Assembly (NCBI GenBank): GCA_965206595.1
Contig: OZ242214.1
Coordinates: 5,088,001-5,152,000, forward strand
Length of the DNA: 64,000 nucleotides
Direction of reading: 5' to 3'
From: Candidatus Latescibacterota bacterium
Lineage (GTDB): Bacteria > Latescibacterota > UBA2968 > UBA8231
The translations under genes were made by a program, and so were the position numbers. The notes under the pieces are model-generated. The model worked only from the letters and a program-made list of their open reading frames with translations. It searched no databases and was not told where the DNA came from. The stretch's first letter is position 1, and each line of letters opens with the position of its first letter. Shown piece after piece: positions 9,183-17,843 of this stretch.

Positions 9183-10628
9183 GGCTCGTCAGTAGAATTC
9201 GTGGGTGAATTGTGGCTCGGGTAAATCGCCAAGCTGATGGAATGAAGCGATTTGGAGTGCCTTGAAGGTGCGGCATCCGAATGCTTTTCTCCCTGTCAGA
9301 TTCCATTTCAGGTTCAAGCCCTCGACCATGCCGTTGTTGAACTGCTTCCTGGCCCTGAACCAATTGAGGATGAGCTCTTGGTGACGCCGCAGCATTCCGG
9401 CGATGTCTTTCATCGGTTCGATGTTGCTTCTCATCGTACGGAAACACCCGCGCTGGAGGAACTTCTCAGCCCACGCGGAGTAGGTGTAGTCCCAGAAGCG
9501 CTGGAAGTCCTCCTTGAGCAGGTAGGCTCTGACCGTCCGCAGGTTCATCTTCAATAGCTCCGACAGCTTCAAGCCTTGTGGGGGAGTCGCTGAGGTTCTC
9601 CTTGCGCTTCAGGAAGCACCAGCGGCTCTTGCTCAGGACCGGATCCTGGCCCTGTTCTTTGAGTCTGCGGGCCTCTTCGGCACGGACTTTGTCGAGGGCC
9701 TTGCTGAAGTGCTGCATGAGGTGAAAACGGTCGAGAATAGGTACCGCGGTGGGGAGCCGCTTGCTGATAACGTCGAGGTAGGCTTTCCAGATATCAGAGC
9801 AGATGACGGTAATCTGGTCGAGGAAACGGGTCGGCTCCTGCTCGCCGCCGGCTTCCTGCTTGCGCCGGTGCTCCTGCTCCCGTTCGGTAAAGCCGTCGTT
9901 CAAGGCCTTCTTCGTCCGCTTCTCGCCCATCCACAACAGGCGGCGGCGGTGGGGGTCGATCTGGTACAGCAACGTCAGATAATGAGGCCCCTTACGATAC
10001 TGGATTTCATCCACGCCGAGGGCCGTGACCTGGTCGAGGCAGCGATGAGCGAGCCCATAGTCCACGACGTACTGGACGGAGTGGTAGACCTTGTCCCAAC
10101 GGGTCCGGAAGGAACGCGCCACCTCGATCCACGACAGTTTTTTGGCCCCCTGGGCCAGGAAGCAGCGGTAGAGGTCGGTCAGGTGGTGCTTGCCCGTGCT
10201 CCAGGGGACCTTCTCGACGACCACCCGGCCGCAGGCTTTGCAGGCAACCCGGCGCATGCGATACACCAGAAAGACCGGAAACCCCCAGAGGGGAACAAAC
10301 TCGAACAGCCGGGCCTCGGGGGCCGTGTCATAGGTGGGGGCCAAGTGACCGCAGCCGCTGCACGCGCCCCGGGAGTTTTTCCGTGGCCTTATCCTCACCA
10401 TTATCCTTCCGTGCCGGTCAAAATGACTGCCCTCAAACACAAACCGCTTGAAGGTCGTGCACCGGTTTAGTACCGTGATCAGGCGCATCATTCCCTCCAC
10501 AGGTAGTTGGGTTCCGTCTTGGTGGACTGTCCCAACATACCGGGGGATGATGCGCCTGGGCTACCTGGCCTCCTCTATTCCCATCGCCGCAGCCTCCCCT
10601 CCTCACCCACAGATTCTCCAGAGGAGCC
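9183..10628 (-). mobile_element. ISL3-family insertion sequence (1446 bp)
   Basis: Terminal IRs ggctcgtcagtagaattcgtgggtga / ggctcctctggagaatctgtgggtga (21/26 identical); 8-bp AT-rich TSD ataaataa at 9175-9182 and 10629-10636. Confidence 0.95.
9189..10500 (-). pseudogene. ISL3 transposase, frameshifted
   Basis: Zn-finger CSGC/CKAC, LGVDE, CSDIWKAY, DRFH in ORF 9466-10500; NGMVEGLN in ORF 9189-9572; frames join if one base of the G5 run near 9580 is removed. Confidence 0.9.
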
Positions 10629-12211: not shown

Positions 12212-12375
12212 GGCGTCAAAGGTCCGGCCAGCCGATTGACGGCACCCGGGTATAATTCAACCGGAAATCCATTTGTGGTTGTTTTTAAGAAGGTTGTGGA
12301 ATTTTTGCAATTACGGAAAATGTGTGCGGACCGAAATTGCACCGAGGTTGCCGGAGGTTTGCTATGCTCTGAAGC

Positions 12376-12391
12376 GCTCTATATATTGAGA
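12376..12391. promoter_or_regulatory. Candidate NrdR box upstream of topA
   Basis: gctctatatattgaga matches the full core CwAtATaTwG of the NrdR consensus, about 100 bp before the topA ATG. Confidence 0.5.
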
Positions 12392-12489
12392 AAAATGTGG
12401 CAGCATTGGCAAAATTGAGGTGTCCGACTCAATATGCAGATTTTAGATCTTGATGGTTTAATGCCTATCAACAACTACGGCACAAGGTA

Positions 12490-14748
12490 ATGGCAAAATC
12501 ACTCGTTGTAGTAGAATCACCTGCAAAGGCGACCACAATCAACAAGATTCTCGGCAAGGACTACCTGGTCAAGTCCTGCATGGGACATGTGCGCGACCTG
12601 CCTCCAAAGGAGTTGGGCGTCGACGTCGACAACGATTTCAATCCCCGCTACGTCACCATCAGGGGCAAGGGAAAGATTCTGGCGGACTTGCGCAGGGCCG
12701 CCCGGACAGCGGACGAGATCTATCTCGCAACCGACCCGGACCGCGAAGGCGAGGCGATAGCCTGGCACGTTGCCCATGCAATCGGCAACAAGGATGACCT
12801 TCCGGTCAAACGCATCCTGTTCAACGAAATCACCCCGAAGGCAGTGCGCGAGTCGATCGCCAAGTCGGGAAAGCTCGACCTCAGAAAGGTCAACGCCCAA
12901 CAGGCACGCCGCGTGCTCGACCGCCTGGTAGGATACGAAATCAGCCCGTTGTTGTGGAAGGTTATACACGCAGGCCTGTCGGCCGGGCGGGTGCAATCGG
13001 TCGCTCTTCGTATGATCTGCGAGCGAGATGCTGAAATCAACGCCTTCGAGCCGCAGGAATACTGGACAATCGATGCCTTTCTCAAGCAGAGAAGTGATTC
13101 TGCCAAGCCTTCTGCCGACGACGAACATCCTGCCTTCACTGCGCGATTGCTGCAGCACCGCAACGAGAAGCTCGTCATATCGAACCAGGAACAGGCCGAC
13201 GCCATCGTTGCCGACCTGCGAAAGGCGGATTTCGCCGTCAAGCAGGTAAAGCGGAAAGAACAGCGGCGGCGGCCTTCGGCCCCCTTTATCACCAGCACCT
13301 TGCAGCAGGATGCAGCTCGGCGACTGCGCTTTTCCGTCAAACGCACCATGGCTGTGGCACAACAACTCTACGAAGGGATCGAGGTTCAGGGGGAAACTCG
13401 CGGTTTGATCACCTACATGCGAACCGACTCGGTGCGAGTCTCCGATGACGCCATTACCGAGGTCCGCGAGCATATCGGCAAGACTTACGGAGAGAATTAC
13501 CTTCCCTCGAAACCGAATGTTTACAAGACCCGACGAGGTGCGCAGGACGCTCACGAGGCGATCCGGCCCACCTACCTTGACCTGCTTCCCGGTGAGCTGA
13601 AAAACAGGTTGAAGGCGGACCAGGCCAAGCTTTACGACCTCATCTGGAAACGCTTCGTCGCCTCGCAGATGGGACCCCAGGTTCTCGATATCACCAGTAT
13701 CGACATTTCCGCCGCCGACTATCTACTGCGAACCACCGGGTCGCGTACGAAGTTTCCTGGGTTCTCCGTGCTCTACACGGAAAGCAGAGAAGATGAAGGG
13801 GACAGCGAGAAGGCCCAGTTGCCTCCCGGTATCGTAGCCGGACAGGAACTCGACGCCCTGAACCTGAAGCCGGAACAGCATTTCACCAAGCCTCCCCCTA
13901 GGTACTCCGAAGCATCTCTCGTAAAAGAGCTCGAGGCGAAAGGTATCGGCAGACCCAGCACTTACGCGCAGATCATAAGCACCCTGCAGAATCGGGAGTA
14001 CGTGGAAAACCTGGACCGCTACTTCGTGGCCACGGAGCGCGGACAAACGGTCAGCAAGCTTCTTATCGAGACCTTTCCCAACATCTTCGACGTCCGCTTT
14101 ACCGCAAAAATGGAAGACGAGCTCGACCGCATTGAGGACGGCAAGGAGAACTGGGTGGAGACGGTGCGCCAGTTTTATGGATCCTGGAGCGATTCCTTGA
14201 AGGATGCGAATTCGCGACGTCGCGAGCTCAAGCAGTCCCTGCAGGAAGAGACCGACATTGTCTGCGAGGACTGCCATCGCAAAATGGTTGTGAAGTGGGG
14301 CCGAAACGGCCGTTTCCTCGCATGCCCGGGCTACCCGAATTGCAAGAATACCAAACCTCTCGAACAGGATCAGGAGCAGGTCCGGACCGACGAAAAGTGC
14401 GAGCTCTGCAGCTCTCCAATGGTCGTCAAGACCGGGCTCTACGGACGCTTTCTCGCCTGCAGCGGATACCCCGATTGTCGCAACGTCAAACCGTACTCTC
14501 TCGGGATATCCTGCCCGGAGCAGGACTGTGGTGGCGAAGTGGTGGAGAAGCAATCCCGAAAGGGGAAGGTGTTCTACAGCTGCAATCAGTACCCGAATTG
14601 CAAGTTCGCCAGCTGGGACAAACCGGTGGAAGGGCCCTGTCCTCACTGCGAAGCGCCGCTCCTGTACGAAAAGAACAGCCGGAACGGGGCGCCGATGCTG
14701 CTCTGCCGCGTGTGCGAAAACCGGTTCGAAAACACTCCTGCCGCTTGA
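12490..14748 (+). CDS. topA: DNA topoisomerase I
   Basis: VESPAKA TOPRIM, ATDPDREGEAIAWH, SAGRVQS, catalytic ITYMRTDS, C-terminal Zn ribbons. Confidence 0.98.
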   Translation: MAKSLVVVESPAKATTINKILGKDYLVKSCMGHVRDLPPKELGVDVDNDFNPRYVTIRGKGKILADLRRAARTADEIYLATDPDREGEAIAWHVAHAIGNKDDLPVKRILFNEITPKAVRESIAKSGKLDLRKVNAQQARRVLDRLVGYEISPLLWKVIHAGLSAGRVQSVALRMICERDAEINAFEPQEYWTIDAFLKQRSDSAKPSADDEHPAFTARLLQHRNEKLVISNQEQADAIVADLRKADFAVKQVKRKEQRRRPSAPFITSTLQQDAARRLRFSVKRTMAVAQQLYEGIEVQGETRGLITYMRTDSVRVSDDAITEVREHIGKTYGENYLPSKPNVYKTRRGAQDAHEAIRPTYLDLLPGELKNRLKADQAKLYDLIWKRFVASQMGPQVLDITSIDISAADYLLRTTGSRTKFPGFSVLYTESREDEGDSEKAQLPPGIVAGQELDALNLKPEQHFTKPPPRYSEASLVKELEAKGIGRPSTYAQIISTLQNREYVENLDRYFVATERGQTVSKLLIETFPNIFDVRFTAKMEDELDRIEDGKENWVETVRQFYGSWSDSLKDANSRRRELKQSLQEETDIVCEDCHRKMVVKWGRNGRFLACPGYPNCKNTKPLEQDQEQVRTDEKCELCSSPMVVKTGLYGRFLACSGYPDCRNVKPYSLGISCPEQDCGGEVVEKQSRKGKVFYSCNQYPNCKFASWDKPVEGPCPHCEAPLLYEKNSRNGAPMLLCRVCENRFENTPAA

Positions 14749-15734
14749 GCAGTGCCGGCCGAGGCCGCGCACCCTTGGAAAGCGAACCTCTACCCGATTC
14801 TACAGCGCGATCCGAAGACGCTCCGAACCCCTCTGCGCCCCTTGAAGACGGCATCGCCCACTTTCTCGATCACCTGCAGAAGAGCGGCCGCCCCGCTTCG
14901 ACCATTGGCGCATACCGCTCCGACCTGAATCAGTTCGCCCTCTTCGTGCATCCGCGCACGGCAGACGCGTCGATCGGTTCCATCGACAGCGGACTGGTAG
15001 GCAAGTTCCTGTGCGAACAAAAACGGCAAAACAAACCTACAACCGCCCAGCGAAAACTTTCCGCGGTGAAATCGCTGTTTCGCTTTTTACAGCGCTCCGG
15101 CGTCCGCGATGACGACCCCGCAGCCGGACTGAGGGTTAGGACCAGACCGCAACCCGCAGAGCCCTGCCTCGAAAAGGAGGCCCTTGCCGAGGTGATCAAA
15201 AAAACGCCGGCCGACAGCTTCGCCGCGGTCCGCAACCGTGCTATCATCGAAATCCTGTACGGAGGTGGGTTGCGGCTCGGGGAACTGGTCGCGCTGAATC
15301 TGACCTCGCTGGAACTCGGATCGGGAATGTTGAAACTCGGCCCGCCGGACGCACCGAGGCTCGTGCCGATCGGTTCGCGTGCCGCGGTCACGATTAGCGC
15401 ATACCTGCTGTGCCGGGCGGACCTCCTGGTCGACAAGGAGATTGCCGATATCGACGCAGGCGCCCTCTTCCTCAACACCTCGGGAAAACGCCTTCACCGC
15501 AGGACAGTGCAACGCATCGTCGAACGCCTGCTGACGTTGGTGAACGGGGGCCGCCCGCGAACATTGCGGCGCGCCTGCGCCGACCACATGCTCGGAGCCG
15601 GTGCCGACGCCGTCGCCGTCGCCAAAATGCTGGGACGGAGAACCCCCGCTTCCGCCAACGTCTCCACTGACGATGAAAAGGTGCTGCTGGGCCTGCGCAC
15701 CACCTACGCAGGCAGCCACCCTCGATACCACTGA
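14745..15734 (+). CDS. XerC-like tyrosine recombinase homolog, predicted catalytically inactive
   Basis: Integrase N-terminal SAM-like domain (TIGAYRSDLNQF, QRKLSAVKSLFRFL), RNRAIIEILYGGGLRLGEL, C-terminal Y...HPR; Lys, both His and Tyr nucleophile substituted. TTG start overlapping the topA stop is inferred. Confidence 0.85.
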   Translation: MSSAGRGRAPLESEPLPDSTARSEDAPNPSAPLEDGIAHFLDHLQKSGRPASTIGAYRSDLNQFALFVHPRTADASIGSIDSGLVGKFLCEQKRQNKPTTAQRKLSAVKSLFRFLQRSGVRDDDPAAGLRVRTRPQPAEPCLEKEALAEVIKKTPADSFAAVRNRAIIEILYGGGLRLGELVALNLTSLELGSGMLKLGPPDAPRLVPIGSRAAVTISAYLLCRADLLVDKEIADIDAGALFLNTSGKRLHRRTVQRIVERLLTLVNGGRPRTLRRACADHMLGAGADAVAVAKMLGRRTPASANVSTDDEKVLLGLRTTYAGSHPRYH

Positions 15735-15839
15735 CCGGGACATCCTCGAAGACGAGTACCTCAGCCGCTACGTCCTGTGATTCCTCGATCCTGTCCGCCG
15801 GCCCGAGAACTGTCTTCCCCCGCCGGCGAGCCTCCCCGT

Positions 15840-17483
15840 ATGCCCCCCTGCATCCCGGATCCGGGACCACCTCGGCACTGGCTTCCCCTGCTCCTGGTCG
15901 CCGTCGCCTTCTCCGGAGTTCACTGTGCCAAGGTCGGCAGGCCACCTGGCGGGGAGGTCGACAGGACGGCCCCGGAAATCGTCGGCCATACCCCGGCGGC
16001 CGACGAAACGGAGGTGGCGGTGGAGAGCGCCATCGTTCTCCGTTTCAGCGAAGCAATGGATCGCAGGCGAACCGAGGAGGCCATCTTTATCGCTCCGCGA
16101 GTCGAGCTGCGCTTCCGTTGGAATGGTCGCACGCTTGAAGCATCCCCTGGCCGCCTTCTCGAGAAGCAGACCTACGTGATCACCGTCGGGACCGACACCA
16201 GGGACCGGCGCGGCAACTCGCTGCCGGAACCGTACACCTTCGCCTTCGCCACCGGGGCGGAATTGGATCAGAGGCGGCTCCACGGCCGCGTCTACGAGGA
16301 AGCGAGGCCTGCGGCCGGGGCCCGGGTATGGGCCTACGATGTCCGCCACTTCGAGGGACGCGTAGGCAGCGATCTCCCCGACTACCAGACGCAAGCCTCG
16401 CAGGACGGCTCGTACGAATTCAAACGCCTTTCCCCGGGGCGCTTCCTCGTGATCGCCTTTGGCGACAAAAACCGCAATTCGCGCCGGGACGCCGGCGAAT
16501 CCCTTGCCCTGCCCGCCCGCATTCACGACCTCTCGCAGAGCCAAGCTGTCCATGCAGGAGATCTGTTGATGGTCCCGGGACACCTGACCGCCCCCCGGCT
16601 GAAGCGGGCACAGCCCCTCGACGAGAACCGACTCCTCCTGGCCTTCGACCGCGAGGTGAACCCTCTGGACTCCGTAGTTGAAATCGATGGGATCGAGGTG
16701 CAGGCAGTCTATTCCAAGGCCCACGACCGAACCAGGCTGTACGTCCTCACCAGTCCCCAACAGGCAGGGGCAAAATACCGTTTCGCCAAGATCGTCGTCG
16801 AGAAACAGCAGATTTCGTGGGACCAGCCGTGGCGCGCCAGCACCCGAAAGGACAAGAAGGCTCCTTCCGTGGTCTCGGCAACCCCCTCGGAAATGGGAGC
16901 TGCCGGCGATTCACTGGTGATCGAGTTCGACGAAGGGATGTCCCCAGATACCCCCGCCGACGATTTCTGGATCGAGACCGACTCGACCACGTCAGTAGAC
17001 GGTACCTGGAGGTGGGAAACTCCGACGCGGTTGGTGCTGGTTCCGCACGAGTCCCTGAAACCGGGATCCTATTCCCTGCGCGGCCGGCTCGGACATCTGA
17101 GTGACAGCGGCGGCCTCGCCCCGTCCGACAGCCTCGTCGAGCTCCATTTCGAGGTGCTCCCCGCATCCGAATTGCCGTCTCTCTCAGGGACGGTCAGTGG
17201 GGAATCCCACCTCGATCTGAGCAAAGTGATGGTGATCGCCAGGCGTGTACCGGGTGAGGGCACCTACACCGCCGATTCCGACAGCAATGGAGCCTTCTCC
17301 CTCAAGGAGGTGCTCCCCGGAGAGTATTCGGTGATGGCATTTGCCGACCGCAACCGCAATCGCGTACCGGATGCCGGCACCCCGCATCCCTTCACGCCGG
17401 CTGAGGCCGTCTCGATCTCCGCGGACAAGGTGGTGGTTCGCAGGGGGCAATTGGCCGCAGGAATCGACCTCGAACTCAGGTGA
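15840..17483 (+). CDS. Ig-like (Big_5) domain lipoprotein with carboxypeptidase-regulatory-like domains
   Basis: Lipobox-like VHC followed by AKVGRPPGGEVDRTAP, FSEAMD and FDEGM Ig-like motifs, DxNxN loops. Start uncertain. Confidence 0.75.
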   Translation: MPPCIPDPGPPRHWLPLLLVAVAFSGVHCAKVGRPPGGEVDRTAPEIVGHTPAADETEVAVESAIVLRFSEAMDRRRTEEAIFIAPRVELRFRWNGRTLEASPGRLLEKQTYVITVGTDTRDRRGNSLPEPYTFAFATGAELDQRRLHGRVYEEARPAAGARVWAYDVRHFEGRVGSDLPDYQTQASQDGSYEFKRLSPGRFLVIAFGDKNRNSRRDAGESLALPARIHDLSQSQAVHAGDLLMVPGHLTAPRLKRAQPLDENRLLLAFDREVNPLDSVVEIDGIEVQAVYSKAHDRTRLYVLTSPQQAGAKYRFAKIVVEKQQISWDQPWRASTRKDKKAPSVVSATPSEMGAAGDSLVIEFDEGMSPDTPADDFWIETDSTTSVDGTWRWETPTRLVLVPHESLKPGSYSLRGRLGHLSDSGGLAPSDSLVELHFEVLPASELPSLSGTVSGESHLDLSKVMVIARRVPGEGTYTADSDSNGAFSLKEVLPGEYSVMAFADRNRNRVPDAGTPHPFTPAEAVSISADKVVVRRGQLAAGIDLELR

Positions 17484-17492
17484 TGCGGCGAA

Positions 17493-17843
17493 ATGCGCTA
17501 TCTCCAGGTCCTCGGGGCCTTTTTTGTTCTCGGCGTAATCGGGATCATCCAGTTCTCACGGCTTAAGCCGGAAGAAACCGGCGAGATCGAGTTGACGGCC
17601 CGATTGGAGGCGTTTTACCTGATGCAGGCAGAATACCGCAGGGAGCACCAGGTGTTTTTCAACCCGCAGGCGGAACCGTACCGCAGCCAGTTGTCCTGGC
17701 TGCAGGAATGCGACTGCGAGGTGCGCTGGAGCCGCGAGGCGTTTTCCGTCGTCGCCCGCGCCGACTTCGACGGCGACGGAATCAGCGGGGTCTGGTGCAT
17801 CGGCCACGGGAGCCCCGAGGTCGAGAAGCTGGGCGAGGACTAG
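17493..17843 (+). CDS. Small membrane-anchored hypothetical protein, pilin-head-like
   Basis: N-terminal TM, then AFYLMQAEYRREH and ARADFDGDG..GVWCI, reminiscent of type IV pilin heads. Confidence 0.55.
   Translation: MRYLQVLGAFFVLGVIGIIQFSRLKPEETGEIELTARLEAFYLMQAEYRREHQVFFNPQAEPYRSQLSWLQECDCEVRWSREAFSVVARADFDGDGISGVWCIGHGSPEVEKLGED

Follow-up and report, generated by a model that had tools for sequence, protein, structure and literature searches.

The stretch of Candidatus Latescibacterota DNA analyzed here (the window, 64,000 nucleotides, G000:C1:5088001-5152000 of a 7.05-Mb single-contig genome) carries, directly downstream of topA, a full-length gene for a XerC-like tyrosine recombinase that is predicted to be dead for catalysis, i.e., unable to cleave DNA as a tyrosine recombinase, and that is kept by purifying selection. 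By position the gene is the orthologue of XerC, which together with XerD forms a textbook heterotetramer in which both partners must cut. We tentatively favor the reading that the XerC-like protein serves as a non-catalytic DNA-binding partner of XerD at dif, to which we assign a probability of about 0.45.

A Xer Fold Lacking Four Catalytic Residues

The 329-aa product matches both domains of tyrosine recombinases above the Pfam cut-offs, namely Phage_int_SAM_1 (PF02899, 8.1e-13, residues 37-118) and Phage_integrase (PF00589, 2.3e-17, residues 154-303), and among solved structures it is best matched by E. coli XerD (1a0p, 7.1e-27, HMMER). The tyrosine recombinase fold is also recovered in an AlphaFold2 (AF2) model built on a 48-sequence alignment, which has a mean predicted local distance difference test (pLDDT) score of 85.9 and is matched by Foldseek with a probability of 1.00 to XerA, XerD, lambda Int, XerH and Cre. 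The scores against the NCBIfam models for XerC (TIGR02224, 157.5 bits versus a cut-off of 335.15) and XerD (TIGR02225, 161 bits versus a cut-off of 329.6) both stay far below the respective thresholds.

Catalytic positions were assigned from the HMMER alignment to XerD and from family alignments. Arg I (R177), Glu I (E180) and Arg II (R275) are kept, while the hairpin Lys is replaced by A203, His II by R272, His III by R298 and the Tyr nucleophile by S307; of the R-K-H-R-H/W-Y set, only Arg I and Arg II thus remain. Because the nucleophile, the general-acid Lys and both His are absent, the protein would not be expected to cleave DNA, and the missing Tyr excludes a strand exchange of its own. 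In the AF2 model, residues 296-307 are without helix and form a low-confidence loop in place of the Tyr-bearing helix (the pLDDT of residues 301-310 averages 58), and the last helix (308-324) is still formed. According to a study on Cre, no substitution of the Tyr is active and substitutions of the Lys are very weak at best (Gibb et al. 2010, PMC2943603); the same source gives the Tyr as conserved in 99.6% of tyrosine recombinases.

The original prediction, made from the DNA letters, had described a frame of about 329 codons overlapping the topA stop, with the XerC motifs degenerated to GPPDA, PRTLRRACADH and an altered segment between His III and Tyr. On re-reading, the frame begins with TTG at 14745 and ends with the stop at 15732-15734, all three motif readings are exact, and the alignments to XerD and within the family bear out the claim that four of the six residues are lost, with Tyr replaced by Ser and two Arg left. 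A search for another Tyr in the active site yielded no candidate: Y321, the only Tyr nearby, is a separate position, which is conserved also where the nucleophile is kept.

Retention by Purifying Selection

The frame and its degenerate motifs are kept in 12/12 close homologues (75-99% identity), and every Tyr-less copy is a full open frame, i.e., 18/18 Tyr-less family orthologues and one further Tyr-less copy, G044. Ratios of nonsynonymous to synonymous substitution rates (dN/dS) were estimated pairwise (Nei-Gojobori, 200 bootstraps) over the part of the frame outside the overlap with topA. Three pairs of Tyr-less copies in the window's genus gave values of 0.270, 0.297 and 0.274 at a dS of 0.13-0.53. 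Tyr-less copies in the genera g3, g7, g18 and g6 gave 0.13-0.39 and Tyr-keeping orthologues 0.04-0.25, five pairs (g7, one g18 pair, g6, one g9 pair and g16) being saturated at dS >1 and their ratios rough. The corresponding values are 0.01-0.19 for topA and 0.20-0.46 for the downstream gene, big5. Given these low ratios, with bootstrap upper bounds of ≤0.52 in every Tyr-less pair, the gene is kept by purifying selection; an undisrupted frame and a dN/dS well below 1 are not what a pseudogene would have. The original prediction had taken the loss of catalytic residues without decay of the frame as a sign of selection for a non-catalytic role, and this proposal has held up: the degenerate motifs persist in all 12 homologues, dN/dS is 0.27-0.30, and the Tyr-less state is common to a clade of six genera (see below). 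The substitutions are conserved and the ratio lies below 1, i.e., this copy does not evolve neutrally, and close relatives, in which an intact RKHRHY set was looked for, do not keep it.

Conservation among the Tyr-less proteins is uneven. Across 11 Tyr-less genera, 81 positions are ≥80% identical, spread over both domains and including Arg I, Glu I, Arg II, H281 and a family-specific block (residues 237-262), as well as T53, Y57, D60, Q63, R103, K104 and R113 in the core-binding domain. The C-terminal tail contacts the partner subunit in XerC/XerD, and its Y..(A/S)HPR motif is 91-100% conserved in Tyr-less genera, with Y321, H325, P326 and R327 being 100% identical across the 11. The sharpest drop in conservation falls on residues 291-310, from His III to Tyr (0.40 in Tyr-less versus 0.74 in Tyr-keeping genera). 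Degeneration is thus centered on the catalytic elements.

Ancestry and Recurrent Loss of the Nucleophile

A six-frame search of 40 relatives recovered orthologues from the same genus, with 93% and 76% identity, and others from across the family with ~33-48%. topA lies directly 5' of the XerC-like gene in 30/35 of the relatives' loci (19/19 and 11/16). The five others comprise two contig ends, two loci of genus g6, in which only the downstream gene is kept, and L096 (genome G052), a gene that is only 29% identical, is not beside topA, has a canonical signature and is possibly a paralogue; the Tyr-keeping orthologues below include this gene, whereas the topA tree does not. The big5 gene is syntenic in 12/19 and 14/16 of the relatives' loci and is found in outgroup families as well. 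In sister families of the same class, a XerC-like gene with big5 and/or topA around it is present in 7/7 loci, with the signature RKHRHHY in six of them and RNHRHHY (Lys to Asn) in the seventh. The topA-xer-big5 neighborhood is hence common to the window's gene and to canonical XerC genes of the sister families, and the XerC-like gene is the positional orthologue of XerC; since the outgroup genes are both canonical and topA-linked, its ancestor was an ordinary topA-linked XerC. In Bacillus, xerC (the product of which is CodV) is near topA, too.

Within the family, the Tyr is kept in 18/36 orthologues and lost in the other 18. The 18 Tyr-keeping proteins include eight with the full signature, seven with Lys replaced by Arg and three with Lys replaced by Phe, and across all orthologues Arg I is kept in 34/36 and Arg II in 36/36. 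In the Tyr-less proteins, the nucleophile column holds S, R, E, G, F, H, P, A, K or a gap, i.e., there is no conserved alternative nucleophile. The adjacent topA genes were placed in a maximum-likelihood tree (31 rows, quick search). This gene tree, which stands in for the species tree, requires a minimum of five changes of the Tyr state. The window's genus falls within a clade of nine rows from six genera (98% support), all nine of which are Tyr-less, and separate losses are placed in g7, in g3 (sister to the Tyr-keeping g9, 95% support), in g17 (inside a 98% clade with the Tyr-keeping g4 and g11) and in one species of g16 (99% support). Genus g6, which is absent from the tree, is Tyr-less as well. 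While the tree alone cannot tell gain from loss, the canonical state of the outgroups argues for losses. In genus g10, the XerC-like gene is gone altogether: big5 follows topA within about 300 bases in 2/2 genomes (L143:3744-4013, L144:3708-4046), and tblastn detected no remnant of the XerC-like gene in either of them.

In an unbiased scan covering 1.84 billion representatives of clusters formed at 50% identity, the 11 best matches are all Tyr-less and full length (292-347 aa). Altogether, 21 of the 150 best matches are without the Tyr, and RKHRHHY is present in 113/152 aligned rows.

XerD, dif and Further Recombinases

An intact XerD and a dif site were sought elsewhere in the genome, and both were found. 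The genome has 13 Phage_integrase matches, and the XerD orthologue is encoded downstream of uvrC (G000:C1:6814161-6815075; L002:1141-2055, + strand), scoring 281.7 bits (XerD cut-off 329.6). XerD was found in 40/41 family genomes at 40-55% identity, the sole miss being in a genome that is 73% complete, and 30 aligned orthologues show no variation in its Arg I, Arg II, LGH and Tyr. A genome scan gave one strong dif-like site of the canonical 11-6-11 layout, GATTTACATAA-GAAATA-TTATGTGAACT, outside the window (G000:C1:1835978-1836005; L008:2122-2149), which is flanked by leuS and mutL and located where cumulative GC skew reaches its maximum. Related sites with ≤1 mismatch occur in 22/41 family genomes, while a reversed control pattern had few matches. 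Of the two arms, the XerD-type one (TTATGTAAAnn) is conserved and its counterpart variable, and this is the same in genomes with a Tyr-less and with an intact XerC. Prediction, in a run without controls, of a complex of XerD with residues 31-329 of the XerC-like protein scored 0.30 and 0.18 against a mark of 0.32, which speaks neither for nor against their pairing. The cumulative GC skew of the genome is itself irregular, with a sharp maximum at ~1.85 Mb, a broad minimum at ~3.9-5.1 Mb and a net positive drift, and the window may be close to the replication origin.

Additional recombinases are encoded next to dif. Immediately before the dif-like site of the window's genome lies the gene for a 309-aa Cre-like recombinase (L008:1105-2034, + strand) with an intact-looking active site, the best PDB match of which is Cre (1.7e-19). 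This dif-adjacent copy is shared by the three species of the genus (85-87% identity to the two sister species), and a copy at 64% identity is found beside dif-like sites in G019; at the orthologue in G001, no dif-like site was detected within 1.5 kb at ≤2 mismatches. Genomes of the genus hold multiple copies of the Cre-like family: 10 matches in G000 (the window's genome), 15 in G001 and 5 in G002. In most other genera, the neighbor of dif is instead a single-copy Xer-like recombinase of ~315 aa (e.g., L074:1545-2486, - strand; L091:1718-2680, + strand). This third Xer-like recombinase was found in 30/41 family genomes at 57-82% identity; a further comparison detected it in 20/29 family genomes versus 0/31 from sister families. 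The window's own genus yielded no copy. In at least 12 genomes, the gene is adjacent to dif-like sites, and two inverted sites, with their XerD-type arms toward the gene, often enclose it. The unit could represent a cassette or an invertible module. A link between the state of XerC and the dif-adjacent third recombinase within the family was considered and rejected, as the latter is present in Tyr-less and Tyr-keeping genomes both. Among solved structures, chain 14 of PDB entry 9i5v (401 aa), deposited as ‘Ribosome-associated translation inhibitor RaiA’, can be aligned to Xer-type recombinases along residues 6-273 and carries the catalytic motifs in canonical form. The match might reflect a ribosome-associated protein with a recombinase-like region, or else an oddity of annotation.

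Possible Roles of the XerC-Like Protein

The original prediction had named three roles, i.e., a DNA-binding partner in a Xer/dif system, a chromosome-architecture factor and a regulator co-expressed with topoisomerase I; these are not told apart by the present data, and the further recombinase gene next to dif complicates the choice. A role as partner of XerD is preferred because the core-binding domain, both phosphate-contacting Arg and the C-terminal tail are kept, and because XerD and an asymmetric dif persist alongside. The XerC-like protein would then be a pseudo-recombinase with a complete two-domain fold, which might bind the XerC-side arm of dif via its core-binding domain and the two phosphate-contacting arginines, pair with the intact XerD through the conserved C-terminal tail, and serve the synaptic complex in a structural or regulatory capacity. 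XerD alone would then exchange strands, and the Holliday junction might be finished by the dif-adjacent recombinase or by a junction resolvase. A role of XerC that does not depend on catalysis has a precedent in P. aeruginosa (see below). Several observations weigh against this role. The deletion in g10 means that at least one genus can do without the gene; dN/dS of Tyr-less copies is about 1.5 to 3 times above that of Tyr-keeping orthologues, and constraint has perhaps been relaxed 1.5- to 3-fold, to about the level of big5; and an intact recombinase beside dif could make XerC unnecessary there. The activity of XerD is itself uncertain, in that the canonical hairpin Lys is missing in 30/30 orthologues, mostly replaced by Arg or His, and the hairpin loop has no Lys at all in the window's genus. 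Moreover, binding of the XerC-like protein to dif or to XerD is something we infer from sequence features, and catalysis by XerD only would leave a Holliday junction, the resolution of which is purely hypothetical. A wider version of this role is less probable, namely that the whole family uses a Xer machine with a built-in pseudo-recombinase, in which an obligatory non-cutting XerC would position and license XerD at dif, dimers would be resolved with one catalytic Xer partner, and the second exchange would fall to the dif-adjacent recombinase, in a division of labor among three proteins, or to a resolvase, with loss of the XerC chemistry having been favored at least five times after a dif-flanked cassette entered the family ancestor.

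Somewhat less probable, but close behind in view of the g10 deletion, an additional recombinase next to dif and the unusual hairpin of XerD, is a repurposing of XerC away from dif: a dif-adjacent recombinase might have arisen in the family ancestor and taken over from XerC, presumably the family-specific Xer-like protein, swapped for the Cre-like protein in the window's genus, and XerC, released from recombination, might survive as a DNA-binding protein in another role, e.g., an architectural or regulatory one, co-expressed with topoisomerase I. The third recombinase and the degeneration of XerC are limited to the same family (18/36 orthologues without Tyr inside, 0/7 outside), and the former, which adjoins dif-like sites, is more conserved than XerD or the XerC-like protein (57-82% versus 40-55% and 33-48% identity). 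The tight linkage to topA and a non-recombinase role of XerC implied in P. aeruginosa (see below) would fit as well. However, the family-wide appearance of the third recombinase and the family-wide relaxation of XerC, although they coincide, amount to one evolutionary event, and the third recombinase accompanies Tyr-less and Tyr-keeping XerC alike and is missing from the window's genus. Furthermore, Arg I, Arg II and the C-terminal tail are what a subunit of a recombination complex would keep, and no result points to an alternative target or function. An adaptive loss, which could happen repeatedly, is also conceivable, if improbable: the XerC-like protein could act as a gatekeeper, which occupies the XerC arm and blocks the XerC-first, FtsK-independent exchange used by mobile elements for integration into dif. 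At least five Tyr losses on the topA tree suggest more than drift, cassettes with recombinases and second copies of dif-like sites are present around dif in the family, the genus has Cre-like recombinases in multiple copies, and XerC-only catalysis is reported for some integrative elements. Yet the proposal is wholly inferential, repeated loss is equally expected under simple relaxation, and no result supports the occurrence of XerC-exploiting elements in this phylum.

Neutral decay and hidden catalysis are effectively excluded. A recently inactivated pseudogene, drifting with a frame left open by chance, might show the dN/dS above that of topA and Tyr-keeping orthologues and the low NCBIfam scores (157.5 and 161 bits, far under cut-offs of ~330 bits), but would hardly be full length in all Tyr-less orthologues and G044, shared by a six-genus clade with 98% support, bounded at a dN/dS of ≤0.52 in every pair, Tyr-less and full length in all 11 best cluster representatives, and folded in a confident AF2 model. 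Even less credible is a recombinase that is still active through another nucleophile or a residue provided in trans. Cleavage in trans exists in Flp, and the invariant Y321 is located on the C-terminal helix that reaches the neighboring subunit; however, Y321 is equally conserved where the normal Tyr is kept and is therefore a different position, the nucleophile column varies among Tyr-less lineages, and the Lys and both His are gone as well. The near-universal Tyr and the lack of any active Tyr substitute in Cre, as given in PMC2943603, point in the same direction.

Relation to Known Xer Systems

The XerC-like protein resembles XerC of the E. coli XerC/XerD-dif system in its two-domain Xer fold, its positional orthology and the presence of XerD and a canonical dif-like site alongside, but differs in the absence of Lys, His II, His III and Tyr, which is mirrored in the XerC model score (157.5 versus 335.15 bits). 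In E. coli, mutants in the catalytic Tyr of either XerC or XerD do not resolve chromosome dimers. Compared to the engineered XerC-Y275F class, the window's protein would be a natural equivalent, with three further catalytic residues gone. The single-recombinase Xer systems (XerS/difSL, XerH/difH, XerA, Legionellales) likewise depart from the scheme of two active recombinases, and the XerS gene is reported to lie immediately beside its own site (PMC5357621), as a recombinase gene lies beside dif here. However, those systems are without XerC, whereas here a putatively inactive XerC is retained next to an intact XerD and a canonical 11-6-11 dif rather than an atypical site.

In P. aeruginosa, the recombinase-dead XerC-Y272F is reported to have a milder, intermediate phenotype compared to deletion of xerC, implying a second function of XerC (PMC8609362). 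In the literature searched, this engineered variant is the closest precedent for a dead XerC; it is a mutant of an active enzyme, while the apparently inactive state described here arose naturally, is ancient and has recurred. Full-text searches and passages of Xer surveys and of a tyrosine recombinase classification, the supplementary tables of which may list such subgroups, yielded no XerC that is dead for catalysis by nature. Outside the bacteria, Crypton-derived eukaryotic genes are tyrosine recombinase derivatives that are retained for DNA binding without recombination. ALOG domain proteins, too, are described as eukaryotic tyrosine recombinase derivatives kept for DNA binding (PMC3537659). 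The eukaryotic derivatives stem from mobile elements and often comprise one domain, whereas here a bacterial housekeeping Xer protein has kept both.

A naturally dead XerC that is kept over long times, with the loss recurring in sister genera, would imply that XerC has a selectable non-catalytic function, and that the resolution of chromosome dimers can be reorganized to rely on one active Xer partner or on a third recombinase. The family would moreover provide a natural series, comprising intact, Lys-to-Arg, Tyr-less and deleted states, by which structural and catalytic roles of Xer proteins could be told apart.

Gene Neighborhood and Transcription

The features of the locus are compiled in Table 1. 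The + frame of the XerC-like gene is open from 14295 through its stop, without internal stop or frameshift. Gene callers picked the equivalent start in 9/12 close homologues (P0003-P0009, P0011, P0012), a start farther upstream in P0010 and a downstream one in P0002 and P0013. The topA product matches Pfam Topoisom_bac (5e-126), Toprim and three Zn ribbons.

Table 1. Features of the topA-xerC-big5 cluster (positions within the window).
Feature	Position	Strand	Basis or remark
topA, DNA topoisomerase I, 752 aa, directly 5' of the XerC-like gene	12490..14748	+	Pfam
XerC-like open reading frame, 329 codons, tyrosine recombinase predicted to be catalytically dead	14745..15734	+	Frame, Pfam, structural matches
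TTGA, XerC-like start TTG (14745) overlapping topA stop TGA (14746-14748)	14745..14748	+	Sequence
N-terminal extension, residues 1-31, predicted disordered	14745..14837	+	pLDDT <50 at residues 1-21; variable among relatives
Core-binding (SAM-like) N-domain, helices at residues 33-117	14841..15095	+	PF02899; AF2 helices pLDDT ≥92
AYRSDLNQF, core-binding domain	14910-14936	+	
AQRKLSAVKSLFRF, core-binding domain	15045-15086	+	
Catalytic-domain fold, residues 144-329	15174..15734	+	PF00589; AF2 secondary structure
Arg I (R177), retained	15273..15275	+	Alignments
Glu I (E180), retained	15282-15284	+	Alignments
Beta-hairpin GPPDAPR (GKGNK to GPPDA)	15339..15359	+	Alignments
General-acid Lys position, A203	15351-15353	+	
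DAGALFLN..GKRLHRRTVQRIVERL, family-specific block, highly conserved in Tyr-less and Tyr-keeping orthologues alike	15453..15530	+	
Box II PRTLRRACADH; His II is R272, following His is R276	15555..15587	+	Alignments
Arg II (R275), retained	15567-15569	+	
LGRRTPASANVST, His III-to-Tyr segment; R298 where LGH reads LGR	15630..15668	+	Alignments
Tyr nucleophile position, S307	15663-15665	+	
YAGSHPR, C-terminal tail, last helix	15705..15725	+	
Big_5 / CarboxypepD_reg protein, 568 aa, 3' neighbor, third member of the cluster	15777..17483	+	Pfam

As the genes overlap, co-expression of topA and the XerC-like gene is suggested by their arrangement. A promoter scan, which is weak evidence, placed promoter-like sites upstream of topA only (12359-12517) and none between topA and the XerC-like gene. 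Two RNA libraries labeled as sponge metagenome contain contigs from a close relative that match topA and the first 220 bases of the XerC-like gene and are 90-99% alike; pieces covering 14369-14770 and 14755-14964 are about 93% and 98% alike, respectively, DNA carry-over being possible. No piece among the contigs of these two metatranscriptome runs crosses the topA/xer junction by ≥31 letters. Another 18 runs from seven studies, their kind not being recorded, contain the region 12400-17500 wholly or partly, with shares of 0.25 to 1.00. As to decaying genes in the window, to which the original prediction had attributed frameshifts, the one case noticed lies upstream of the cluster: a frame for an ISL3-family transposase (9466-10500, - strand) matches positions 1-130 of the 240 positions of the DDE_Tnp_ISL3 profile and probably represents a truncated or decayed insertion sequence.

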